IMG/VR virus record: IMGVR_UViG_3300046167_000888
Source: a virus
Direction: 5' to 3' (one strand)
DNA: 64,000 nt
Shown: piece after piece, positions 5,070 through 17,371 of the stretch
Layout: every line of letters begins with the position of its first letter
Position numbering within the stretch: the first letter of the stretch is position 1
Made by a program: the position numbers and the translations under genes
Notes under the pieces: model-generated
The model's database searches: none
Told to the model about the DNA's origin: nothing
The model's input: only the letters and a program-made list of their open reading frames with translations

Positions 5070-6469
5070 TGACATTACAAACATTAAACCAATACGGAGC
5101 TGACTTTCAAATAAAAGTTTTATCATCACTATTAACCCATAAAGATTTTTTAGTTAATATACATGATATTATTAGTGATGAATATTTTGAAAACCCAGCA
5201 CATAAATGGGCTATTAAAGAAATACTTAGGTATTATGATAAGTATCATACAACACCTGAATTAGAAACATTAAAAATTGAACTACAAAAAGTTGATAATG
5301 ATGTTTTACAAATATCAATTAAAGAACAACTTAAAAAAGCATTTGTAGCTTCTGATGATGATTTACAATATGTACAAGAAGAATTTACTAATTTTTGTAA
5401 AAACCAACAATTAAAAAGAGCATTAATGACTTCTGTTGATATGTTAAAAGCAGGAGATTTTGAGTCAATTCGAATGTTAGTTGATAATGCTTTAAAAGCA
5501 GGTCAAGATAAAAATATAGGACATGAATATATTAAAGACATTGAAGAACGTTATAGAGAAAATTCAAGGGAAGTTGTACAAACACCTTGGACCCAAATTA
5601 ATGAAATACTACAAGGTGGATTGGGAAATGGAGATTTTGGTCTCATATTTGGTAATCCAGGAGGTGGTAAGTCTTGGAGCTTAGTTGCTTTAGGAGGGTA
5701 TGCAGTTAGAACAGGTAAAACTGTTCTTCATTATACACTTGAATTAGGAGAGGATTATGTTGGAAGAAGATATGATGCTTTTTTCTGTAATACTGATGTA
5801 AGTAAAATTGGTTTTTATAAAGATAAAGTAGAAGAAACTATACCTCAGTTGCCAGGTAAACTAATAATTAAAGAATATCCCACAGGTAGGGCAACAATCT
5901 CAACAATTGAAGCTCATATTGCGAAATGTACAACTATGGGAAATAAACCAGACTTAATAATCATTGATTATGTAGATCTTCTTTCAGGAAGACGTAAAAG
6001 TAGGGAGCGTAAGGACGAAATTGATGATATTTATACTAGCACAAAAGGTCTTGCAAAACAATTAGATATACCAATCTGGTCTGTTTCACAAGTAAACCGT
6101 GCAGGAGCACAAGACGACATAATTGAAGGAGACAAGGCAGCAGGGTCATATGATAAAATGATGATTTCTGATTTTGCAATGTCTTTATCAAGAAAAAAAG
6201 AAGATAAGCAGAGAGGAACCGGACGTCTACATATTATGAAAAATAGATATGGTATGGATGGTCAATCCTTTTCTTTGTTAGCTAACACATCTACAGGACA
6301 CTTCGAAGTATTTCCTTACAATACTGACCTAGATGATGTAGAAGCAGCCTCTCTTAAACCTTCAGCTAAGTCTAATGCTTATGATACGGATGTGGACAGA
6401 AGAGAGAAGGCAGCAATGTTTGCAAAATTAAAAACGTCAGATGGCAATTTTACTTTTGAGCAGAAATAA
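5069..6469 (+). CDS. dnaB: Replicative DnaB/gp41-like helicase
   Basis: GNPGGGKS Walker A, IIIDYVDLL, SQVNR, MKNRYG. Confidence 0.9.
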   Translation: MTLQTLNQYGADFQIKVLSSLLTHKDFLVNIHDIISDEYFENPAHKWAIKEILRYYDKYHTTPELETLKIELQKVDNDVLQISIKEQLKKAFVASDDDLQYVQEEFTNFCKNQQLKRALMTSVDMLKAGDFESIRMLVDNALKAGQDKNIGHEYIKDIEERYRENSREVVQTPWTQINEILQGGLGNGDFGLIFGNPGGGKSWSLVALGGYAVRTGKTVLHYTLELGEDYVGRRYDAFFCNTDVSKIGFYKDKVEETIPQLPGKLIIKEYPTGRATISTIEAHIAKCTTMGNKPDLIIIDYVDLLSGRRKSRERKDEIDDIYTSTKGLAKQLDIPIWSVSQVNRAGAQDDIIEGDKAAGSYDKMMISDFAMSLSRKKEDKQRGTGRLHIMKNRYGMDGQSFSLLANTSTGHFEVFPYNTDLDDVEAASLKPSAKSNAYDTDVDRREKAAMFAKLKTSDGNFTFEQK

Positions 6470-6493
6470 TTATAACTTTATAAAATAAATACA

Positions 6494-7480
6494 ATGGCAA
6501 AAAAATCATTATTACAAGAGCGTATCGTTTATAAACCATTCGAATACCCAGAAGCACACGATTATTGGATGAAACAACAACAAGCACATTGGCTACACAC
6601 TGAAGTACCTATGATGTCAGATGTTAACGATTGGAAACAAAATTTAACTGAAGTTGAAAAAAATATTATTGGTTCTATTTTAAAAGGGTTTGCTCAAACA
6701 GAAACTGTAGTAAATGATTATTGGTCATCATTAGTAACAAAATGGTTTAGAAAACCAGAAGTAATTAAAATGGCAGTTACATTTGGAGCATTTGAAACTA
6801 TTCACGCTGAAGCTTATTCTTTGTTAAATGAAGAATTAGGATTAGATGATTTTAGTGAATTTTTAGAAGATGAATCAACAATGGCTAAAATTGAAGCATT
6901 AACTGAAGTAAGAGATTCTCATGATGGAACACCTAATTGGCATGAAAGAGCTAAATCATTAGCAATCTTTTCTGCATTTACAGAAGGTGTAAATTTATTT
7001 TCTTCTTTTGCAGTATTACTTTCTTTTAAATTAGATAATAAACTTAAAGGAGTAGGACAAATTGTAGAATGGAGTATTAGAGATGAATCATTACATTCAG
7101 AAGCAGGATGTTGGTTATTTAGAACACTATTAAAAGAACACCCAGAATTTGATACCCCAGAATTAAAAGCTGATATTGAAGAGGCAGCTAAATTATCTTT
7201 AAAATTAGAATTAGATTTTATTGATACAGTTTATGAAATGGGAGATTTAAAAGGGTGTCCAAAATATGATTTAGTATCATTTATCAAACATAGAGTAAAT
7301 ACTAAAATGGGTGATCTAGGATATGGACCAATTGTAAATGGTATAGATAAAGAGGCAGTACAAAGAATGAAATGGTTTGATAGCTTATCAGCTGGAAAAC
7401 AACATACAGACTTTTTTGCAAATAGAGTAACAAATTATTCAAAAGGTGTTCAAAATTGGGACGCCGCAGCATTATTTTAA
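6494..7480 (+). CDS. nrdB: Ribonucleotide reductase class Ia beta subunit
   Basis: ETIHAEAYS, EGVNLFSSF, DESLH di-iron motifs, DFFANRVTNY tail. Confidence 0.95.
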   Translation: MAKKSLLQERIVYKPFEYPEAHDYWMKQQQAHWLHTEVPMMSDVNDWKQNLTEVEKNIIGSILKGFAQTETVVNDYWSSLVTKWFRKPEVIKMAVTFGAFETIHAEAYSLLNEELGLDDFSEFLEDESTMAKIEALTEVRDSHDGTPNWHERAKSLAIFSAFTEGVNLFSSFAVLLSFKLDNKLKGVGQIVEWSIRDESLHSEAGCWLFRTLLKEHPEFDTPELKADIEEAAKLSLKLELDFIDTVYEMGDLKGCPKYDLVSFIKHRVNTKMGDLGYGPIVNGIDKEAVQRMKWFDSLSAGKQHTDFFANRVTNYSKGVQNWDAAALF

Positions 7481-7483
7481 AAT

Positions 7484-9199
7484 ATGGAAAACAACGCACT
7501 ACAAGTAGATTATAGTAACTGGGAATCAGGTAAACAATATCCTGAGTGGATGGATGAAATTTCTTTAGCTACTATTTCAAAGGGATACTTACTCCCAGGT
7601 GAAACAGTAAGAACAGCATATAAAAGAGTAGCAAACGCCGCTGCTTCAAGATTAAAAAAACCAGAATTAGCTAATAAGTTTTTTAAACTATTTTGGAATG
7701 GTTGGGTAGGATTAGCATCACCTGTTTTATCAAATATGGGAACAGATCGTGGACTACCAATTTCATGTTTTGGTATTGATACACCAGATTCTATACGTGG
7801 AATCGGTTTAACTAACGCAGAACTAATGAAATTAACCGCATCTGGCGGAGGTGTAGGTATTTCATTATCTCGTATTAGAAAACGTGGAGAATATATCTCA
7901 GGTAATGGTAAGAGTGAAGGTGTAGTGCCTTGGGCTAAAATTTATGATTCAGCGATTATTGCTACAAATCAAGGAAATGTACGTAGAGGAGCAGCTTCTG
8001 TTAATTTAGATATTAATCATGGAGATATAGACGAGTTTCTACAAATTCGTAGACCGAAGGGTGATCCAAATAGACAGTGTTTAAATTTACACCAATGTGT
8101 AGTTGTAGATGATACTTTTATGCGTAGGTTAGAAGCAAGAGATCCTGATGCATTAAATAGATGGGCTACTATTCTAAAAGCTAGAATGGAAACAGGTGAA
8201 CCTTATATCATGTATAAAGATAATGTTAATAAAGATAATCCTATTGCCTATAGATTAAATAATTTAGAAGTAACAATGACTAATATATGTTCAGAAATTA
8301 CTTTATTTACAGATGAAGAACATAGTTTTATTTGTTGTTTATCTTCTATGAACTTAGCAAAATATGATGAATGGAAAGATACAGATGCGGTTGAGTTAGC
8401 AACTTGGTTCTTAGATGGTGTAATGCAAGAATTTATTGATAAATCCTCTGGTAGAGAATCATTAAAAAGAACTAATAATCATGCTAGAAAAGGTAGAGCA
8501 TTAGGTTTAGGTGTAATGGGATGGCACACTTTCTTACAACAAAAGGGATTACCATTTAATTCAATTGCTTCTACAGCCCATACTCATAATATTTTTAATG
8601 ATATTAGAGGTAAAGCTGAAAAAGCATCTATGAATCTAGCATCTGAATATGGAGAACCAGTTTGGTGTAGAGGAACAGGAATGAGAAATACTCACTTACT
8701 AGCTATTGCACCTACAGTTTCTAATTCAGTAATAGTAGGAGGTATTAGTGCGGGTATTGAACCTCAACCAGCTAACATTTATACTTTTAATGGTGCTAAA
8801 GGTACTTTTATTAGAAAAAATAAAGTATTACAATCTATTTTAGCTGAAAAGGGAGAAGATAAAGACAAATGGTGGGATCAAATGTTACAAGATGGAGGAT
8901 CAGCTCAAAACCTACCTGATAATGTATTAACACCAGATGAAAAAGAATTATTTTTAACTTTCCCAGAAATAAATCAATTAGAATTAGTAAGACAAGCTGC
9001 TATTAGACAAACATATGTGGATCAAACACAATCATTGAATTTAAGTTTTGATCCTAATGATTCACCAAAATGGATAAATCAAGTACATATGGAAGCATGG
9101 AAATTAGGAATTAAAACCTTATATTACCTACGAACTGACTCAGTAATTAAAGGTGATTTAGGATCTAGAATGGCAGATTGTATTAGCTGTGATGGATAA
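7484..9199 (+). CDS. nrdA: Ribonucleotide reductase class Ia alpha subunit (short, no ATP cone)
   Basis: ISCFG, TNICSEI, AIAPTVSNS, KTLYYLR, C-terminal CISCDG. Confidence 0.95.
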   Translation: MENNALQVDYSNWESGKQYPEWMDEISLATISKGYLLPGETVRTAYKRVANAAASRLKKPELANKFFKLFWNGWVGLASPVLSNMGTDRGLPISCFGIDTPDSIRGIGLTNAELMKLTASGGGVGISLSRIRKRGEYISGNGKSEGVVPWAKIYDSAIIATNQGNVRRGAASVNLDINHGDIDEFLQIRRPKGDPNRQCLNLHQCVVVDDTFMRRLEARDPDALNRWATILKARMETGEPYIMYKDNVNKDNPIAYRLNNLEVTMTNICSEITLFTDEEHSFICCLSSMNLAKYDEWKDTDAVELATWFLDGVMQEFIDKSSGRESLKRTNNHARKGRALGLGVMGWHTFLQQKGLPFNSIASTAHTHNIFNDIRGKAEKASMNLASEYGEPVWCRGTGMRNTHLLAIAPTVSNSVIVGGISAGIEPQPANIYTFNGAKGTFIRKNKVLQSILAEKGEDKDKWWDQMLQDGGSAQNLPDNVLTPDEKELFLTFPEINQLELVRQAAIRQTYVDQTQSLNLSFDPNDSPKWINQVHMEAWKLGIKTLYYLRTDSVIKGDLGSRMADCISCDG

Positions 9200-9204
9200 A
9201 CAAT

Positions 9205-10383
9205 ATGAAAACCAGAATATTTTGTTTTTTTCTTTTAATTAGTGGGTTTGTAAATGCACAAACTACTGTAAACATAAGGTCACTTAAGACTCATTATGGT
9301 GGTAGTCAATCAGGTCAGTATTATACAGGTAATGCTAACTCTCACTCAGAATTTGACGCTATGGTTAATCTTGCCGATGGCGGTACTACACTCTATACAG
9401 AAGGAACTGTAGATATAACAAGTTATCAAGGCCCAAGAGGTGGTAATCATACTCCTTATCAACTATGGAATCCACCAAGATGGGGTACTCAAAGATATGC
9501 AATTATCTATTCTGGTTGGTTTAAACCCAATAAATCAGGCGTATATTCATTTAGAACATTTACTGATGACTCACATGAGTTTATGATTAAAGGTATTGGT
9601 AAGACTAATGATATAGTTACTAAACATTATGGTTGGAATGTATGGGCTTATGGTACGGCAACCCTAGATAAAAATACATGGTATGAGTTTGAATATAGAA
9701 TTCAAAATTTTGGTGGTATAGGTGCTGCAAATTTCCAATATAAAATACCGAATGGTAGTAGCTATAATCAACTCAGTCCCGGTCATCCATTTGCAGAATG
9801 GTCTACTACTGAACCTATTGACCCTATAACTCATACTGGATATGTTTATGGAGCAGAAGAAGAAGCTTTAGCCGGAGTTACAGTACAGTTAAAAACTCAA
9901 AATAAAAATCAAGTTGGTTTCTCATATACAACACAAGCTACTACAACCACAAATTCAAATGGTTATTACTCCTTTAACACTACTTTAGATTATAATAGCT
10001 ATGACTATACTATTAATATAGTACAACCGGCATTATCAATACCTACTCTAAATGATATTAGTTACTTTACTAGTAAATTAATTAGTGGGGTTTATAATTC
10101 TAAAGATTATTGGAGAATGGATGTTAATAATGACGGGAAATTTAGTGTTGCAGATTTATATTCTATGTTAGCTTATATGAATGGTATATTTACACAATAT
10201 GCTAATACTACTCCTTCAACAAAAGTTTTTCATTACCAACAAACCCCATTTTATTGGGATCCTTTAGATACAGATACTGATGACAAATCTGAAAGCTTTG
10301 GATATGGGAGTTATAGTTTATTTGATCGAAATAACGGCGATTCTACTATATTTTACTTAATAAGAGCGGGACATAGGAATTAG
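9205..10383 (+). CDS. Secreted protein: PA14-like carbohydrate-binding domain + beta-sandwich + dockerin-like domain
   Basis: Signal peptide ending VNA|Q; YAIIYSGWFKPNKSGVYSFRTFTDD (PA14); GVTVQL..TTTNSNGYYSF; DVNNDGKFSVADL Ca-binding loop. Confidence 0.7.
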   Translation: MKTRIFCFFLLISGFVNAQTTVNIRSLKTHYGGSQSGQYYTGNANSHSEFDAMVNLADGGTTLYTEGTVDITSYQGPRGGNHTPYQLWNPPRWGTQRYAIIYSGWFKPNKSGVYSFRTFTDDSHEFMIKGIGKTNDIVTKHYGWNVWAYGTATLDKNTWYEFEYRIQNFGGIGAANFQYKIPNGSSYNQLSPGHPFAEWSTTEPIDPITHTGYVYGAEEEALAGVTVQLKTQNKNQVGFSYTTQATTTTNSNGYYSFNTTLDYNSYDYTINIVQPALSIPTLNDISYFTSKLISGVYNSKDYWRMDVNNDGKFSVADLYSMLAYMNGIFTQYANTTPSTKVFHYQQTPFYWDPLDTDTDDKSESFGYGSYSLFDRNNGDSTIFYLIRAGHRN

Positions 10384-10418
10384 TCCCACATATTTATAAT
10401 AATAAAATATTTAAACGG

Positions 10419-11507
10419 ATGAAAAAATTACTCTTTATGTTAGCGGGGTTAATGCTAACGACAACAGTTTATGCCCAAACTACATCACCTGATGCCAATA
10501 AGCCTTATGTGATTCTTGATTCTAATTATACTTTAGAATCAATTAGTTCTTCAAATAATACAATAGTAGATATTTATTATGACAATACTACAGGCAACAA
10601 AGTAAAAGGTGTTCAATTTTCTTTTAATTATGATAAAGATGTATTTGATTCTCCAACTGTAACTTACAACAATACTTCAGGTACTGATGGTTATTTATCT
10701 ACAAGTGTAGATGCAACAAATGGTATCGTAAAAGTTGTATGGGCTTATAATGGTGCTACTTCTACTTTTGATATTACTTCTGGTAATATGTTTGATGTTT
10801 CGTTACCATTTAAAGATGCTTATACTAATGGTACAGTTGATGGAATTGACTTTACTAGTACCTTAACTGCTTATTATGCAAAATCTGATGGAACAGATGC
10901 TTCATTAGGTACATCAGATAATGGTGGTAATTTTATAGAACCAGTATTTAATTACATAGCTACTATTTTAAATAGCCCTTCAAATCCAACTGAATCGATT
11001 CCTGTAATTTTACAAAAATCTGCAGATGGTAGTTCTTGGGCAAATGTATCTACAATAACAACTGGAGCAGATGGAAAAGCAACATTCGTAGCAAACCTAG
11101 ACCAAGGTTATTGGCAATTAAGACTTAAAATTGCAAGTGGATTAAATGCTAGTACAGCACTAACAACAGCTGATGCTAATATGATTGCTCAAATAGCAGC
11201 AGGGGCACAAGCAACATCAGGTATACAATTTTATACTGCTAACCCAAATCAAGCAAATGGAGTTACAGTATCAGATTCTTATTTATTGTTTGCTAGATTA
11301 GCAACTAATGGTACAAGTTACGCTAATAATCCAGATGTATTATTCTTTACAGAATCACAGTATAATACTATTAACAGTGCAACATCAGACCAGTCTAGTT
11401 CAATACCAGGTCTAGCAGAATTCTTATCACCAAATATAAATGGAACTACAACTGGTAATTTCTATATATTAGTATTAGGTGATGCCAACGGAACAGGATT
11501 AAATTAA
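10419..11507 (+). CDS. Secreted protein: cohesin-like domain + beta-sandwich + dockerin-like domain
   Basis: Signal peptide ending VYA|Q; VKGVQFSFNYDKDVF..GIVKVVW (cohesin); LTTADANMIAQ..ANPNQANGVTVSDSYLL..LGDANG (dockerin-like). Confidence 0.65.
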   Translation: MKKLLFMLAGLMLTTTVYAQTTSPDANKPYVILDSNYTLESISSSNNTIVDIYYDNTTGNKVKGVQFSFNYDKDVFDSPTVTYNNTSGTDGYLSTSVDATNGIVKVVWAYNGATSTFDITSGNMFDVSLPFKDAYTNGTVDGIDFTSTLTAYYAKSDGTDASLGTSDNGGNFIEPVFNYIATILNSPSNPTESIPVILQKSADGSSWANVSTITTGADGKATFVANLDQGYWQLRLKIASGLNASTALTTADANMIAQIAAGAQATSGIQFYTANPNQANGVTVSDSYLLFARLATNGTSYANNPDVLFFTESQYNTINSATSDQSSSIPGLAEFLSPNINGTTTGNFYILVLGDANGTGLN

Positions 11508-11510
11508 TAA

Positions 11511-12245
11511 ATGAGATTATTATTAATACTATTACTAACAATAACAACAGTAGCTCATTCTCAGGTCGTATTTAAAGTACCTGAGATTGAGGTTCCTGTT
11601 AGTGAGTATATTAATTTACCTGTAGAGATTGAAACCTCAGGAGAAACAGTTGGAAGTTTAGAATTTGCTTTAAATTTTGATTCACAGTATTTAGAATTTG
11701 AAAATATTACTGTAACAGCTAAGGCACAAGAATGGCTGACATACACACAGGATTGGGAAGGTGAAAAAGTAAGATGGGGAGGTTATGATGCCTCTTTTGG
11801 TGACTTTACTATAAGTAATACAACTGAATTATTTACAGTAAGATTTAAGGTTATTGATCAAAATTGGACTGAAATACCAATTACTATAGGGAGAAAAACA
11901 GCAGGCACAGATTTAGGATGGGATATTGATGTTGATAATACAGATGGATATGTTAATAGAATGTCACTTCCATTTGATACACAACCAATAGATGGTATTT
12001 ACGGTATAGTATATCCTGTCCCAGTAAAAGGTCCATTAACATTTGAATTAACAGTTCCTGATAATGACTTTTATACAATTAGAGTAATTACGTATAACGG
12101 AACATTAATGAAATCAATTAGAAAGAAATTTTTTAGTGGTTATGTTTCATTTCAAATGGATTTATCAAATTTAGCATCTGCAATTTATTTACTACAAGTA
12201 ACTAATGGTAGATTTATTAAAACATTTAAAATTATTAAAAAATGA
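11511..12245 (+). CDS. Secreted cohesin-domain protein with T9SS type A C-terminal sorting domain
   Basis: Signal peptide; LPVEIE..VGSLEFALNFDSQYLEF..ELFTVRFKV (cohesin); IVYPVPV..DLSNLASAIYLLQV..TFKIIKK (Por secretion tail). Confidence 0.8.
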   Translation: MRLLLILLLTITTVAHSQVVFKVPEIEVPVSEYINLPVEIETSGETVGSLEFALNFDSQYLEFENITVTAKAQEWLTYTQDWEGEKVRWGGYDASFGDFTISNTTELFTVRFKVIDQNWTEIPITIGRKTAGTDLGWDIDVDNTDGYVNRMSLPFDTQPIDGIYGIVYPVPVKGPLTFELTVPDNDFYTIRVITYNGTLMKSIRKKFFSGYVSFQMDLSNLASAIYLLQVTNGRFIKTFKIIKK

Positions 12246-12499
12246 GTAAAAATAAAGGATTTTTTTCGGAAATTAAAAACCAAGTAAAGACAGGTATAGG
12301 ATTAGTTATAACAGCAGGTTTCGGATTATTAATTGCTAATATGCAATCAATATTTGAACCTAAAGAAGATGTTATAGAACCACCTGTAATGGAACAAAAG
12401 ATTAACCCACCAGCAGCTTCTAAAGATACTATTGTAATTTCTAAAACAATAATTATACCTCCTAAGAAAGAAAAAAAAGAAGAAGAAATAACATGGTAA
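12242..12499 (+). CDS. Small single-pass membrane protein
   Basis: One hydrophobic helix, Pro-rich linker; overlaps both neighbours. Confidence 0.6.
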   Translation: MSKNKGFFSEIKNQVKTGIGLVITAGFGLLIANMQSIFEPKEDVIEPPVMEQKINPPAASKDTIVISKTIIIPPKKEKKEEEITW

Positions 12500-13197
12500 G
12501 AATATTTTTAGTCATATCGTTACTCCTAAGTCTTACAGCTAATGCTCAATTAGGTAAAACTGAAACAGAAAATTATAAAGGTAAATTTGAACAAGATGCA
12601 GATATAGATGAAGTATCTGATTATATGTTAGATTATCAATTACCAATTCAAGTCTTAAATATTGGCTTCACACCAGAATTATATGAGTTTTATCCTGAAT
12701 TAAGAGAAAATAGAGTAGGATTAGGTGTTAGTAATATTACTTTATCTTATCTAGAATGGACTGATAGATTTTTATTTACAGAAGATAAAGAAGATATTAA
12801 ACAAAGAATGGTTAAGCAACATAAAGCTGCAGCAAAAGGTATATCGGCAAACGATATTAAAGTTGTAGGCAATGTTGTGTTAGCAGAATATTTTGTATAT
12901 GTAGAAATCTATGATTACTCGGTATCAGAAGAAGAAGAAGTTACAGTTAATGGGGTTAAAACTGTATTAAAAACAATTATTGGTATGCAAGTTAGATTTG
13001 TGAATGCTGAAACTGGAACTATTTTTACAGGAAGTGGTAGTGGTGAAGCAGTTACAATTAAACGATCTCAAATTGGAGAAGATAATGAAGTTAAATTTAA
13101 TAAATCTACAATAGGGATTGCTACTAAAAAAGCTTTAGAATCTGGAACTGCTCGTATCGTAAAAAGGATGATAAAACGTGGAATATTTAAAGAATAA
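12493..13197 (+). CDS. CsgG/HfaB-like periplasmic/outer-membrane assembly protein
   Basis: Signal peptide; GLGVSNITLSYL..RF, AEYFVYVEIYDY, IGMQVRFVNAETGTI pattern. Confidence 0.65.
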   Translation: MVRIFLVISLLLSLTANAQLGKTETENYKGKFEQDADIDEVSDYMLDYQLPIQVLNIGFTPELYEFYPELRENRVGLGVSNITLSYLEWTDRFLFTEDKEDIKQRMVKQHKAAAKGISANDIKVVGNVVLAEYFVYVEIYDYSVSEEEEVTVNGVKTVLKTIIGMQVRFVNAETGTIFTGSGSGEAVTIKRSQIGEDNEVKFNKSTIGIATKKALESGTARIVKRMIKRGIFKE

Positions 13198-14344
13198 AAT
13201 ATTATTAATTTTATTTCTCTTACCATTAGTAAGTTACGGCCAGTGGTCTTATACATTTACAGACCCTTGTACTTTAACTCAACAAACAATTCAAATAGGA
13301 GGCAGCAACTCTGTTGCTTTAAATTATTTTGGTAATGTCCAAACATTTACTCAAGATGATTTTTCAAATGGAGCTTTTGATTCTTGGTTAGATTTAGTTA
13401 CTCAAGCTAATACTTCAAGCCCTTGTCAAAGTGTAACTCAAGTAATATTAAATACTACTAATTCAGTAGCAGTACAAAATACAGTTACAGTTGTTACAAA
13501 TATAATGTCTATATTAGGAGGAGATATGATACCTCAAGCAGCTTCATCTACAGCAGCCCCAGTTGCTGAAGCAATAGATAACTCTGCAGGTGAAGATGAA
13601 GATGAAGGATCAGGTAATGAAGAAGAAGAAGCCGAAGGTGCTGTTGCTACCTCACTTGCTAATTCTCTTTCAAATGCTGCAGATGGAGGAAGTGCAGAAG
13701 CTAATAAAAATGCTGGTTCATTAATTGCATCTGGAGATCTTGTAATTATAGACAATCAAGATAATTCAAACGGAAGACAACTAAAAGTAGTTAGCTCAAT
13801 TACACACGCCAATACAGAACAAACTAGAATTAAAGGAGCCTTATTTACATATACATCTGTTACTAATGATTTTAGTTTAACCCTTTATAAATCATGGATT
13901 AATCCTAAAAGAACATTTAATTTAGTAGGTGCAAACACTACTATGACAGATTGGAATTTGAACCATTTAAATACAACTACTATTTTAGAGTCATTTAAAT
14001 TTGGTAAAAAGAAATATACAGGTATGGCTGGTCTTAATTTTACAATCGGAAAATTAGGTAAACGAGATCTACAAAATATATCTTCAGTAGCTGGAATACA
14101 TAGAAATTTTAAAATAAGTGATAAAGTAACTACATCAACTTTACTATTAGGTGTCTATTCTCCATTTACACAATATTATGAAGGCAAATGGTGGGATCCA
14201 GGTATGCTAATAGTACCTTTTAGTTCATGGGATATAAAAATAACAAAAACATTTAAATATAATATCAGTTTTACTGGAGTTTGGCATTCACAAGGAAATG
14301 CATTAAATTTTCAGGTATTAACTGGTGGTAAAATAAGATTTTAA
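13178..14344 (+). CDS. Secreted protein with acidic low-complexity linker and probable C-terminal outer-membrane beta-barrel
   Basis: Signal peptide, Cys pair, EDEDEGSGNEEEE linker, amphipathic strands, terminal GGKIRF. Confidence 0.6.
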   Translation: MEYLKNKILLILFLLPLVSYGQWSYTFTDPCTLTQQTIQIGGSNSVALNYFGNVQTFTQDDFSNGAFDSWLDLVTQANTSSPCQSVTQVILNTTNSVAVQNTVTVVTNIMSILGGDMIPQAASSTAAPVAEAIDNSAGEDEDEGSGNEEEEAEGAVATSLANSLSNAADGGSAEANKNAGSLIASGDLVIIDNQDNSNGRQLKVVSSITHANTEQTRIKGALFTYTSVTNDFSLTLYKSWINPKRTFNLVGANTTMTDWNLNHLNTTTILESFKFGKKKYTGMAGLNFTIGKLGKRDLQNISSVAGIHRNFKISDKVTTSTLLLGVYSPFTQYYEGKWWDPGMLIVPFSSWDIKITKTFKYNISFTGVWHSQGNALNFQVLTGGKIRF

Positions 14345-14345
14345 T

Positions 14346-14786
14346 ATGAAAAAAATAATTATAACATTAATGCTTTTACCTATACTTTCATTCTCACAGG
14401 AATGTTATACTGTAACTGAAGTAAGTACACAGGTTGAAATGGAAGAAATTAGTAAAAACCGTATAATATTTGGTATAAAACAAATAATGGAAGATGTAAT
14501 CTCAGACAAATATGAATTATGTATGGATGGGAAACCTATAACAATAATAGTAAAATCTATAGAAGCACCTACAACAAGTATTGAATTTGGAGTCTGGAGT
14601 AAAGCCGCAAAAAAAACAATTGTTAAAATGCTAGTTTACATAGATGGTAAAGAAATTGAAGTAACTGGTAAAGCTAAATCTACAGTAGAATCGACTTTTA
14701 TTGATTTAAATAATGAAAAATTACCATTTAGCAAAACAACATTTTCTTCTGCAATAAAAAAGGCAATTGATCGAATAAAATTTTAA
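14346..14786 (+). CDS. Secreted hypothetical protein, possibly a CsgG-partner alpha/beta domain
   Basis: Signal peptide; KTTFSSAIKKA resembles the KSTIGIATKKA tail of the CsgG-like ORF. Confidence 0.55.
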   Translation: MKKIIITLMLLPILSFSQECYTVTEVSTQVEMEEISKNRIIFGIKQIMEDVISDKYELCMDGKPITIIVKSIEAPTTSIEFGVWSKAAKKTIVKMLVYIDGKEIEVTGKAKSTVESTFIDLNNEKLPFSKTTFSSAIKKAIDRIKF

Positions 14787-14846
14787 ATTTCTTCGAATAT
14801 AATTAAATTTTCATATATTTATTGATAAACATAAAACGATAATAAT

Positions 14847-16043
14847 ATGAGGATATTAGTATTAATTGTTTCGTTTATTTTATTTTCACCAACCGTTTTA
14901 CAAGCCCAAATTTTTCAAGAAATCTATAAAGATTTTTTAAAATATGGTACTGTTTATGGAGCAGGTGATATTTCAAACTCAATAGAGGCTGCAGAGCCAA
15001 CTTACTTTTTAAGAACAAACCCAGATGGGAGTTTATATTCAATTCCTGATGTGGTTGATAATACTCCAAAATATCCATTTGATTACAGATATGGATTTGG
15101 AATAAGAAAATTAGCTAGATTTGATTACGAGAGAAAACCAAAGAATTTTTATGATGGTACAGAAGAACAATTAGTATTTTCTGCCCCAACATCAGCAGTA
15201 CAAGGATTAGAATACCAATTCCATTATGAAAAAGAAAGATGGAGAGGAGAAAATTTTACAAATTATAATTACTTTTTAAAACACACAGGTAAATATCATA
15301 TTGTAAAACTTCAAGCTAGAGAAGTAGGTAAAATTAATCTTAAATATAATTCAGCCGAAGTAAGAGGTAGATTACCAATAGGAAAAAAGTTTAGCTTTTC
15401 AGCTGGAGCAATATTAAGAGGACATGAAAGAGCTTACGGTTATAACCCAGTCGAAATATGGTTAAATGAAATTGATGAGAATGGGAACCCAGTAAATCAA
15501 TGGTATGAATTAGGAAGAAATTATGGTTATAATGATATTTTCTATACACAAACAAGCATAGACCCAATTACAGGAGAAGAAACAACAATGCAAGATTGGT
15601 GTTGGGTAGATGCAGATGGAAACCAAGTAGCACACTCAGATTTAGATTTTAGAGAAACTGTAATGCCTATGTTAATGAATAGGTTTAACGGTGAAGCTTG
15701 GGATTTATTAGATCCATGGTTAGATTTAGCACCAATAGTAGGTGTAGATTTTTACCACTACAAAAAAGATTTTTGGCTACACGGATATGCTAATTATATT
15801 TTACCATACCACAGGTATATTAGAGGAAATGAAGATTTTAGTTACTTACACAGAAATAGTTGGGGACTTGGAGGTCACAATAACAATTTAAAAGGTGAAC
15901 AATGGCACGATTATTCTTTTGGTGTTAATTTAGGAACTAAAATTGGTAAAAACTTAGGGATATTCATAGAAGGAGAATATTCAAAAATGTGGGATAGCAA
16001 ATTATATCAAACAACCTTCGGATTAAATTATACATTTAAATAA
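14847..16043 (+). CDS. Probable outer-membrane beta-barrel protein
   Basis: Signal peptide, aromatic-rich alternating strands, C-terminal TFGLNYTFK beta-signal. Confidence 0.65.
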   Translation: MRILVLIVSFILFSPTVLQAQIFQEIYKDFLKYGTVYGAGDISNSIEAAEPTYFLRTNPDGSLYSIPDVVDNTPKYPFDYRYGFGIRKLARFDYERKPKNFYDGTEEQLVFSAPTSAVQGLEYQFHYEKERWRGENFTNYNYFLKHTGKYHIVKLQAREVGKINLKYNSAEVRGRLPIGKKFSFSAGAILRGHERAYGYNPVEIWLNEIDENGNPVNQWYELGRNYGYNDIFYTQTSIDPITGEETTMQDWCWVDADGNQVAHSDLDFRETVMPMLMNRFNGEAWDLLDPWLDLAPIVGVDFYHYKKDFWLHGYANYILPYHRYIRGNEDFSYLHRNSWGLGGHNNNLKGEQWHDYSFGVNLGTKIGKNLGIFIEGEYSKMWDSKLYQTTFGLNYTFK

Positions 16044-16327
16044 TGGCAAAGCAAATAGGAGAAGATACTAAGGTAACTTTGGATTTAAAAACTATTGGGA
16101 TGATAGTAGCTTTTACTGTCTCTCTAGCAGGTATGTATTTTACACTAAAAGCAGATATAGCTTACGCAGCTACACAACCTGAACCAGTTATTGAAAGGGT
16201 AGAATATGACTTAAAGGATGAGTTAATTCGCCAAACCATAATGGATACCCAAGAAGACGTTGAAATGATACTGGAGAAAATGGAAAAGCTAGAAGAGCGT
16301 CTTTATGAGTTATCTAAAAATAGATAA
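16043..16327 (+). CDS. Small membrane-anchored coiled-coil protein
   Basis: TM helix followed by heptad-rich tail. Confidence 0.55.
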   Translation: MAKQIGEDTKVTLDLKTIGMIVAFTVSLAGMYFTLKADIAYAATQPEPVIERVEYDLKDELIRQTIMDTQEDVEMILEKMEKLEERLYELSKNR

Positions 16328-16329
16328 AC

Positions 16330-16755
16330 ATGAAAAAACTTTTAATATTATTTTATATTTTTCCTTCAATGCTTTTAGCACAACAGGAAGTTCCTGAAAA
16401 ATATTGGTTAGATGATTCAAATTACGAAGAAATTGTAAATGGCAATTCAGCATTTGGTGATGATGATAGCAAAATTGTAGTAGTAGAATATTGGGCCAAA
16501 TTTAATGAAATAAATTGTTACGAACACTGGCAAGAGCTAGCAAATAGACCAGACATAGAATATTATAGAGTAGATATTTCTAAAGCTCCACTAGCAAAGA
16601 AAAAATATAGAGTTAGAATGGCTCCCACCATGTTTATTATAACTCAAGATGGAATACAATCTAAATTTAAAGCAGGATTAGATCTATTATTCCCCTCTTC
16701 TAAAGAAGAAGTTGAAGAAGCTATTGAAGAAGCTAAAAATTCCAATAGATTTTAA
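16330..16755 (+). CDS. Secreted thioredoxin-fold protein lacking CxxC
   Basis: Signal peptide; IVVVEYWAKFN, YYRVDI, KKYRVRMAPTM. Confidence 0.65.
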   Translation: MKKLLILFYIFPSMLLAQQEVPEKYWLDDSNYEEIVNGNSAFGDDDSKIVVVEYWAKFNEINCYEHWQELANRPDIEYYRVDISKAPLAKKKYRVRMAPTMFIITQDGIQSKFKAGLDLLFPSSKEEVEEAIEEAKNSNRF

Positions 16756-16817
16756 TATTTATAACCACACCAATAAGGTTCCGCTAATAGTTTTACTAAT
16801 TTTTAAAAACTAGAAGT

Positions 16818-17057
16818 ATGGCATTTAAAGATTTGTTTAAAGACGACAATAACATTAACGAAAAATCAGTAGTAGGATTTGCATCCTTCCTGGTAATGGT
16901 CATTTTCGCAGTAGTAGATATTATTACTGGGGTATTTGGTCAAGAACTTCAAATTCAAGATTACATTTATAACTCTTTTGTAATCATAACTCTCGGTTCA
17001 TTCGGAATCGCTGAGGTAGGCAAAATCTTCGGTAAGAAAAAAGACGAAGACAACTAG
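16818..17057 (+). CDS. Two-TM membrane protein (holin candidate)
   Basis: Two hydrophobic helices, charged C-terminus. Confidence 0.5.
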   Translation: MAFKDLFKDDNNINEKSVVGFASFLVMVIFAVVDIITGVFGQELQIQDYIYNSFVIITLGSFGIAEVGKIFGKKKDEDN

Positions 17058-17070
17058 TTGCTAGTTACGT

Positions 17071-17325
17071 TTGTTTAACTTAAAACCCAATTTTATGGAA
17101 ATTCTAAACAAGATCGGCTCTTGGGCTGACAAACTGACTCACATAGGTGTGTCATTAATCGCTTTAGGAGTAGTACTTGAAGTACTATTCAATGGAGCAG
17201 GAATCCCCTTTTGGCCTGAAATATCAGTGGTAGGTAATATCATGAATATTTTAGGATCATTAAACGCAGAAGGACTACTAGGTTTAGTAGGTGCTTTTGT
17301 ATTATATCATATAGTTAAAAAATAA
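17071..17325 (+). CDS. Small membrane protein
   Basis: Two hydrophobic segments; likely start ATG 17095. Confidence 0.55.
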   Translation: MFNLKPNFMEILNKIGSWADKLTHIGVSLIALGVVLEVLFNGAGIPFWPEISVVGNIMNILGSLNAEGLLGLVGAFVLYHIVKK

Positions 17326-17340
17326 GGAGGTGTTCAATAT

Positions 17341-17371
17341 TTATTCCCGTGCCCTAGTGGTACGGGGGTAA
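17341..17371. terminator. GC-rich hairpin, possible terminator
   Basis: TTATTCCCGTGCC-CTAGT-GGTACGGGGGTAA inverted repeat with G-U pairs; no clear U-tract. Confidence 0.45.

Follow-up and report, generated by a model that had tools for sequence, protein, structure and literature searches.

Here we describe three consecutive genes, A, B and C, in a 64,000-nucleotide stretch of viral DNA (IMG/VR virus record IMGVR_UViG_3300046167_000888; the whole stretch is called the window below). They encode exported proteins and are a widespread, undescribed phage module of the cohesin-dockerin kind; literature searches on phage cohesin or dockerin found no description of cohesin-dockerin sets in phages. 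Our preferred reading is that the three proteins probably form a chain through two cohesin-dockerin pairs, and that C, which is tagged for type IX secretion system (T9SS) export, presents an exchangeable lectin outside the infected cell. The genes and their parts are as follows.

9205-10383, plus strand: gene A, open reading frame (ORF) of 392 residues
A residues 1-18, plus strand: signal peptide with Gln19 at +1, from the Q-rule pattern
9262-9804, plus strand: PA14-like head of A (residues ~20-200), from matches in relatives
9817-10029, plus strand: Prealbumin/CarboxypepD_reg-like beta-sandwich of A (residues ~205-275), from sub-threshold matches
10042-10203, plus strand: dockerin-like module of A (residues ~280-333) with the canonical loop DVNNDGKFSVAD, from the loop and homology to B
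A residues 334-392, plus strand: conserved tail, from the family alignment
10419-11507, plus strand: gene B, ORF of 362 residues
B residues 1-19, plus strand: signal peptide with Gln20 at +1, from the Q-rule pattern
10491-10949, plus strand: cohesin fold of B (residues 25-177), from the AlphaFold2 model and structure matches
10950-11138, plus strand: transthyretin-like beta-sandwich of B (residues 178-240), from the AlphaFold2 model
11151-11318, plus strand: dockerin-like three-helix module of B (residues 245-300) with the degenerate loop NPNQANGVTVSD, from the AlphaFold2 model
After the dockerin-like module of B, plus strand: tail ending LGDANGTGLN, from the sequence
11511-12245, plus strand: gene C, ORF of 244 residues
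C residues 1-17, plus strand: signal peptide with Gln18 at +1, from the Q-rule pattern
11568-11894, plus strand: cohesin of C (residues 20-128), from PF00963
12009-12242, plus strand: type A T9SS C-terminal domain (CTD) of C (residues 167-244), from PF18962 and TIGR04183

A, B and C all have N-termini with positive charge in the n-region, then a hydrophobic core, then a small residue with Gln after it (VNA-Q, VYA-Q and AHS-Q). A small residue and Gln at the signal peptidase I site constitute the Bacteroidetes "Q-rule" (PMC5837995), and phage proteins obeying it have previously been noted in Porphyromonas phages (PMC10367356). A simple pattern scan of the window found such signal peptides in 8 of the 90 plus-strand ORFs of at least 70 residues, and all eight are contiguous at 9205-16755; the entire predicted secretome of the window is one block. 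Three tandem genes, each with a Sec signal peptide, had been proposed in a preliminary description made from the letters alone, and the ORFs listed above bear this out.

Protein C matched Cohesin PF00963 over residues 20-128 (34.5 bits; curated cut-off 24.1), and its C-terminus matched Por_Secre_tail PF18962 over residues 167-241 (30.5 bits; cut-off 27) and TIGR04183 over residues 167-244 (32.9 bits; cut-off 23). The earlier assignment of C as a cohesin with a type A T9SS CTD thus holds above the curated cut-offs for both domains. Cohesin and CTD are both present in nearly all full-length relatives of C (120 listed of 159 found), and a profile of relatives in which B and C are fused matched solved T9SS CTDs (8glk_D, E 1.4e-5). 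From these matches, C probably leaves the cell via the host T9SS.

Protein B gave no significant match in a Pfam scan, Cohesin PF00963 included. Its AlphaFold2 model, built on a 29-row alignment, had a predicted local distance difference test (pLDDT) value of 87.1 and a predicted template modelling (pTM) score of 0.78, and consists of a beta domain (25-177), a small sandwich (178-240), three helices and a tail with two strands and a helix. The helices at 250-260, 270-273 and 284-295, modelled at pLDDT ~85-93, have the three-helix dockerin topology. The best Foldseek matches to the model were 3kcp_A and 4fl4, the CohI9-X-DocII end of Clostridium thermocellum CipA, followed by many single cohesins (probability 1.00). 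In VIA-align, residues 25-177 superposed on 141 of the 146 residues of 6kgd_A with Z 15.4 and a root-mean-square deviation of 2.6 A, dozens of solved cohesins matched at Z 12-15, and the CipA CohI9-X-DocII chains aligned over B residues 25-294 (4fl4_I) and 28-300 (3kcp_A). Structure comparison of the model shows residues 25-177 as the nine-stranded jelly roll of the cohesin fold. As modelled, B is a scaffoldin-like protein with the order cohesin, sandwich, dockerin. The cohesins of C and B are only weakly related at the sequence level (hhalign 35%, E 4e-4).

The C-terminal modules of A and B are homologous by profile alignment: hhalign aligned A 225-392 with B 192-362 over 168 C-terminal positions at 99.75% and E 2.6e-27. 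By pairwise BLAST, A against B and B against C reached only E 0.05-0.1. A type I dockerin consists of a loop D-x-N-x-D-x(6)-D followed by a helix, twice over. The second-repeat loop of A, DVNNDGKFSVAD, has the canonical D1/N3/D5/D12 calcium-ligand pattern, distant relatives of B retain the canonical loop DVNGDNNITISD, and the dockerin modules of A and B have in common the helix 3 pattern V-(A/S)-D-x-Y-x-x-(L/F)-A. Dockerin_1 PF00404 was found below threshold in 18 of 54 relatives (9 of 25 in the A family and 9 of 29 in the B family). Of the cohesin, stalk and dockerin-like region ascribed to B in the preliminary description, the cohesin is missed by Pfam and recovered by fold (Z 15.4), and the stalk and dockerin-like region are homologous to those of A.

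The link between A and B was examined by complex prediction, set up as a choice in which A 205-392, the scored partner, was offered the B cohesin (22-178), the C cohesin (19-160) and two calcium ions. The interface score (ipSAE) was 0.85 (0.83, 0.86 and 0.85 in separate runs), compared with 0.20 for the best of three controls; of 80 solved complexes 58 attained the scoring mark, as did 2 of 110 mismatched pairs. The partner was modelled at a pLDDT of at least 68, and at least 45% of contacts were common to the runs. Because the best control was the run in which the B cohesin was replaced and the C cohesin kept, the model puts the A dockerin on B and not on C. The predicted contacts lie between A 285-294 and 308-333, which are dockerin helices 1 and 3 and the loop, and B 63-66, 92-96, 105-115 and 149-160, on strands 3, 5, 6 and 8 of the B model. 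Strands 8-3-6-5 form the classical dockerin-binding face of cohesins, and the A dockerin is thus predicted to bind the canonical face of the B cohesin. The earlier proposal of a tip (A) joined to a shaft (B) thereby gains in-silico support.

For the second pair, a profile-free search of 1.8 billion representatives found ~10 proteins of ~630 residues that run from a complete B-like part into a C-like cohesin and T9SS CTD. These fusion proteins form a sister clade and lie on viral contigs of up to 158 kb; with the fused protein as query, GTDB species genomes yielded a CTD match in one Ignavibacteriaceae metagenome-assembled genome (MAG) and nothing else. Because B and C are fused in the sister clade and separate elsewhere, they appear to work together. 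We infer that the B dockerin docks on the C cohesin, a fusion being no proof of docking; the shaft-to-base link of the preliminary description is in this way upheld indirectly.

The window holds two dockerin modules (A and B) and two cohesins (B and C) and no more, and the complete genome of the related Flavobacterium phage vB_FspM_immuto (hereafter immuto) holds exactly two dockerin modules and one CTD. These counts fit a simple 1:1:1 chain as well as a filament, in which the B dockerin would also bind the B cohesin so that B polymerises head-to-tail into a shaft capped by A and based on C. We consider a filament improbable. The A and B dockerin modules are homologous with a common helix 3 pattern and A is predicted on the B cohesin, so B's own dockerin might bind there too; yet two plugs and two sockets per genome are fully explained by the 1:1:1 chain, and in the sister clade the B dockerin is covalently next to the C-type cohesin, suggesting that cohesin as its partner. 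The same counts bear on whether the proteins decorate phage particles, for example as a glycan-binding adhesin on the capsid or tail. Lectin-like or Ig-like decoration domains are frequent in phages, but the cleavable signal peptides of all three proteins and the T9SS tag of C would send them out of the cytoplasm, where virions are assembled, the complete immuto genome has no further dockerin module to mark a virion protein, and the cassette lies outside the structural gene block. Such decoration is extremely improbable, and we rejected virion proteins as an explanation on the signal peptides and the lack of another dockerin in immuto.

The N-terminal head of A is the variable part of the set. 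In A of the window, PA14 PF07691 had no match at E up to 1, and the protein's own Pfam matches are confined to sub-threshold CarboxypepD_reg/SdrD_B hits at 211-282. PF07691 matched five relatives of A, two of them at or above the cut-off of 24 (P0164, 24.7 bits; P0399, 40.8 bits), and P0164 is 78% identical to A of the window (alignment A5); as judged from these matches, the head is PA14-like at the family level. Of the earlier picture of A as a PA14-like lectin with a stalk and a dockerin-like loop, the stalk and loop therefore stand, and the PA14 assignment stands for the family, with no match in the window's own protein. In immuto and a sister clade the same dockerin module carries a C-type lectin (Lectin_C), alone or together with a LamG/ConA-like domain (Laminin_G_3). 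A profile of the mixed A family gave, against the PDB, weak C-type lectin and dockerin/X-Doc rows alone (E 0.03-0.96). The preliminary description had asked whether A varies among related phages while B and C are conserved, and this is the pattern found: PA14, C-type lectin and C-type lectin plus LamG heads on A, with B and C constant. In immuto gp13 (L001:6461-7459) the C-type lectin apparently sits inside the sandwich, with the first strand motif THSGYIYGS... before the lectin and the remainder after it. If the lectin splits the sandwich domain there, heads may be exchanged by loop insertion rather than by N-terminal fusion.

The window has a G+C content of ~30%, and its plus strand carries nearly all genes. 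The region around A-C is syntenic with immuto (Immutovirus, 160,410 bp; host Flavobacterium sp. LMO8, Baltic Sea), the common gene order being RecA, exonuclease, DnaB, NrdB, NrdA, a "lectin C-type" protein, a hypothetical protein and a "cohesin domain-containing protein". In the GenBank record of immuto, gp13 and gp15 are labelled by domain and nothing further. Another IMG/VR contig, L002, is a close relative of the window with the same gene order. From the immuto synteny and the gene order of L002, the window is assigned to a large virulent phage with a Flavobacterium-type host. The start codon of A lies 5 nucleotides after the nrdA stop codon, and the cassette is 3' of the ribonucleotide reductase genes in the window, L002 and immuto.

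Genes A-C are the front of a conserved seven-gene cassette, A-G, found across 15 compared loci. The three-gene frame of the preliminary description was in this respect too narrow, as A-C belong to the larger exported cassette. The window, L002 and immuto have the seven genes in the sequence A, B, C, D, E, F, G; the fused clade (L004-L016) has BC, D, E, F, G and then the A-like lectin. The remaining genes of the exported block are listed below.

12242-12499, plus strand: gene D, ORF of 85 residues overlapping C and E; single-pass membrane protein with a charged Pro/Lys/Glu-rich C-terminal tail
12493-13197, plus strand: gene E, ORF of 234 residues with a signal peptide; exported
13178-14344, plus strand: gene F, 388 residues with a signal peptide (alignment A3)
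14346-14786, plus strand: gene G, 146 residues; small exported protein with two invariant Cys (alignment A7)
14847-16043, plus strand: H, 398 residues ending ...YTFK, Q-rule signal peptide; window and L002 only
16330-16755, plus strand: I, 141 residues, Q-rule signal peptide; window and L002 only

Gene D has a sequence match in L002, a similar-size gene at the same position in immuto and a counterpart of ~112 residues in the fused clade; domain-library scans found no family match for it. E is the most conserved member of the cassette, at 51-58% identity across clades. Its nearest named clusters by language-model features are CsgG/HfaB/LpoB (atlas score 0.94; 172-182 shared features). CsgG PF03783 did not match E or seven relatives at E up to 10, and was absent from three genomes with E homologues while matching in four control genomes. 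The structure model of E reached a pLDDT of 43 on an 8-row alignment and was not used. F has an N-terminal domain of ~110 residues with two invariant Cys, an acidic or low-complexity linker of very variable length and a beta-rich C-terminal domain of ~210 residues ending in Phe. Its nearest named atlas clusters are all small outer-membrane barrels (scores 0.91-0.94), and the C-terminal domain is probably an outer-membrane barrel. G aligned weakly with E (hhalign, 38.9%) and on this alignment may be distantly related to it. Profiles of E, F and G found nothing meaningful among PDB sequences. Genes D-G are tightly packed and accompany A-C in all the clades compared; their products could provide an export or anchoring route for A and B. 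H and I were not found in immuto or the fused clade and had no family match. In L005, part of the fused clade, an extra ORF of 122 residues with two hydrophobic segments lies between E and F (L005:11009-11377); its product could be a holin-like membrane protein.

Aquatic metagenomes contain 159-269 relatives of each of A, B and C, the contigs reaching 210 kb, and 16 studies (marine, seawater and viral metagenomes) include near-identical DNA. Where E has homologues in "bacterial" MAGs, these lie on binned phage contigs, at least in the two long cases. A 248-kb contig from a Flavobacteriaceae MAG (L017/L022/L023, G001:C1; 248,233 bp) encodes terminase, portal and major head proteins, their genes lying ~10-20 kb downstream of the cassette, and a 112-kb contig from a Sediminibacterium MAG is phage-like, with DNA polymerase and helicase genes. 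The 248-kb contig carries A-G at 57-94% identity and has almost no other gene in common with the window, indicating that the cassette moves between phage backbones; the PolB of the window had no relative in the three MAG assemblies with E homologues. On the same contig, a ClpB-like ATPase gene lies just after the cassette on the opposite strand. No bacterial home for the cassette was found in searches that reach only fairly close relatives. The preliminary description had allowed that the block might be a chimeric host fragment absent from related phages; this candidate was ruled out, the block being present in many phage contigs and in the cultured immuto.

A further arrangement was found in Sediminibacterium and Flavobacterium MAGs (L020:4572-6341 and L021:4406-6199), where a protein of ~590 residues with a C-type cohesin near its C-terminus is followed by E. 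It matches neither the B-type cohesin nor the dockerin module and, from its sequence, looks like a third cassette architecture.

RNA-library contigs from four libraries of three studies cover 5434-17151, and mismatch-free ones bridge B-C (10515-11884) and C-D-E (11679-12963). This is a weak hint of cassette transcription, since carry-over of DNA is possible. A strong terminator-like hairpin with a 13-bp stem and six G-C pairs lies at 17341-17371, downstream of the exported block, and the RNA-library cover fades before it. The "late" motif GATATATAG has a single copy in the window (minus strand, 31293), which is not above chance, and a sigma-70 promoter scan of the window was uninformative (56 sites; 65.9 expected).

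Several results weigh against the proposed chain, and one group of them concerns the docking itself. Cohesin-dockerin complexes are common among solved structures, so that the pass of the A-B prediction may reflect likeness rather than real binding, and this prediction departed from the calibration, being given custom alignments and two riding calcium ions. Conservation, checked independently, was no higher at the predicted interface than elsewhere (0.78 vs 0.75 in the B cohesin, p 0.10; 0.62 vs 0.74 in the A dockerin). The loop of B has lost Asp at positions 1 and 5, and in the first repeat of both A and B the helix is present and the canonical loop absent. Dockerin_1 had no match in A or B of the window at E up to 1, and no relative reaches its cut-off of 22.9 bits (best 18.8 and 17.6), which is why these modules are called dockerin-like here. 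Non-cellulosomal cohesin- and dockerin-like modules without proven partners are widespread, and the same observations could mean that A, B and C are three independent exported proteins, the dockerin-like part being a calcium-binding sandwich insert and the cohesin folds spacers or glycan binders. That the proteins do not pair at all seems to us even less probable than a filament. It would leave aside the strong and specific A-B prediction with its controls, the constant co-occurrence of the three genes, adjacent across clades and backbones, the B-C fusion, and the matching numbers of plugs and sockets.

The other group concerns export and timing. A and B carry no CTD, and we know of no demonstrated piggy-back export through the T9SS. 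Many type A CTD cargos of Flavobacterium are released and not anchored. On other phage backbones (the fused clade L004-L016, L017:3804-4685, L020:3006-3875 and L021:9124-9954) the cassette has as its immediate neighbour an endolysin gene, encoding PG_binding_1 with GH19 or amidase, and this placement suggests a function at or after lysis. The L017 endolysin has only the N-terminal PG_binding_1 in common with the GH19 endolysins (58.6% identity over 58 residues), carries an amidase domain instead and lies on the opposite side of the cassette. With this neighbour as its main argument, A-G could be an envelope module working at or after lysis, in the periplasm or outer membrane, instead of decorating the living cell. 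It might aid outer-membrane breakdown, or bind wall or surface glycans on debris so that progeny are not lost, with cohesin-dockerin contacts forming in the periplasm or after release. The membrane protein D and the extra two-pass protein of L005, both inside the cassette, and the missing outer-membrane export tags of A and B would suit such a role. However, the ribonucleotide reductase genes precede the cassette in the window, L002 and immuto, with no homologue of these endolysins nearby, a T9SS sorting domain is sensible only for export before lysis, and D-G matched no known holins or spanins in domain-library scans. We regard a lysis-linked role as unlikely, if well short of far-fetched.

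Returning to the chain presented on the infected cell, its steps may be set out as follows. The PA14-like, sugar-binding head of A would be borne on the sandwich and dockerin module, which would plug into the N-terminal cohesin of B, and the B dockerin would plug into the cohesin of C. Because C carries the type A CTD, the host T9SS would take it across the outer membrane, where it could be surface-fixed or released. A and B would exit as passengers on C, through the envelope proteins D-G, or at lysis. The lectin would then bind host or environmental glycans; candidate purposes are to hide glycan receptors of the surface, so as to prevent superinfection or progeny being lost on debris, and to clump cells. 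T9SS export, surface location, glycan binding and purpose are what we infer from the domains. A more specific scenario can be drawn, which we offer only tentatively and would not expect to hold as a whole: the complex would be built in the periplasm, the single tag of C would carry the folded, untagged A and B out, and the lectin would bind host-type glycans, causing clumping with uninfected sisters ("host capture" before lysis) or receptor masking, with head swaps tracking host glycans.

If the chain exists as proposed, it would be a new phage way to rewrite the surface of the infected cell, comprising a complete plug-and-socket set, an exchangeable lectin and the host T9SS as its route. The cassette moves among unrelated large phages of Bacteroidota, key degraders of algal polysaccharides, so its role, with aggregation, particle attachment, superinfection exclusion and progeny protection as candidates, could bear on marine carbon turnover. 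It also raises the question for the T9SS of whether a tagged carrier can take untagged partners out with it. The phage vB_FspM_immuto and its host Flavobacterium sp. LMO8 are available as a cultured pair, and the small orthogonal cohesin-dockerin pairs may serve as parts for surface display in Bacteroidota.

Cohesin-dockerin assemblies are bacterial and archaeal devices that mainly serve the breakdown of plant cell walls. The anchoring end of the C. thermocellum cellulosome, where CipA CohI9-X-DocII (3kcp, 4fl4) meets a type II cohesin, follows the same logic as A-C: a cargo bearing a dockerin, an adaptor with cohesin and dockerin, and an anchoring cohesin protein with a cell-surface signal. 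B also has the same order of cohesin, beta-sandwich and dockerin as the CipA end. The phage set differs in being viral with a Gram-negative Bacteroidota host, in using a T9SS type A CTD and not SLH domains as anchor signal, in having a lectin and not an enzyme as cargo, and in containing two cohesins only. Its sandwich is of the transthyretin/CarboxypepD_reg-like type, the dockerin is followed by an additional conserved tail of ~60 residues, and its dockerins are too divergent for the Pfam model. A true cellulosome was ruled out, as no enzyme carries a dockerin, and the "mini-cellulosome" of the preliminary description has to be given up: the dockerin bearers are A, with its lectin head, and B alone, and scans of A, B, C and their relatives turned up no catalytic domain.

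The one report of phage-encoded T9SS cargo that we found concerns Cryophage, a Bacteroidota phage that encodes proteins with T9SS type A CTDs, one of them with PA14, in genes that vary between phage variants (Bellas et al. 2020, PMC7468147). There each cargo has its own CTD and no cohesin or dockerin was reported, whereas here the CTD is on C alone and the variable lectin is on a separate, dockerin-bearing protein. Pelagimyophages, large marine myophages, carry a csgG/csgF "curli" (type VIII secretion) cluster for exported outer-membrane proteins, and cell aggregation for "sibling capture" was proposed for it (Zaragoza-Solas et al. 2020, PMC7029224). In that cluster CsgG and CsgF are recognisable, whereas the phage protein E resembles the CsgG family by language-model features without a Pfam CsgG match; the pelagimyophage cluster is also without cohesin, dockerin, lectin or T9SS tag. 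On the host side, RemA of Flavobacterium johnsoniae is a T9SS-secreted surface lectin adhesin. Unlike the phage set, it is a single large protein of the host, bears a CTD itself, travels with the gliding machinery, has no cohesin-dockerin joint and is not viral; its overproduction clumps cells, a phenotype that a phage lectin display could give.

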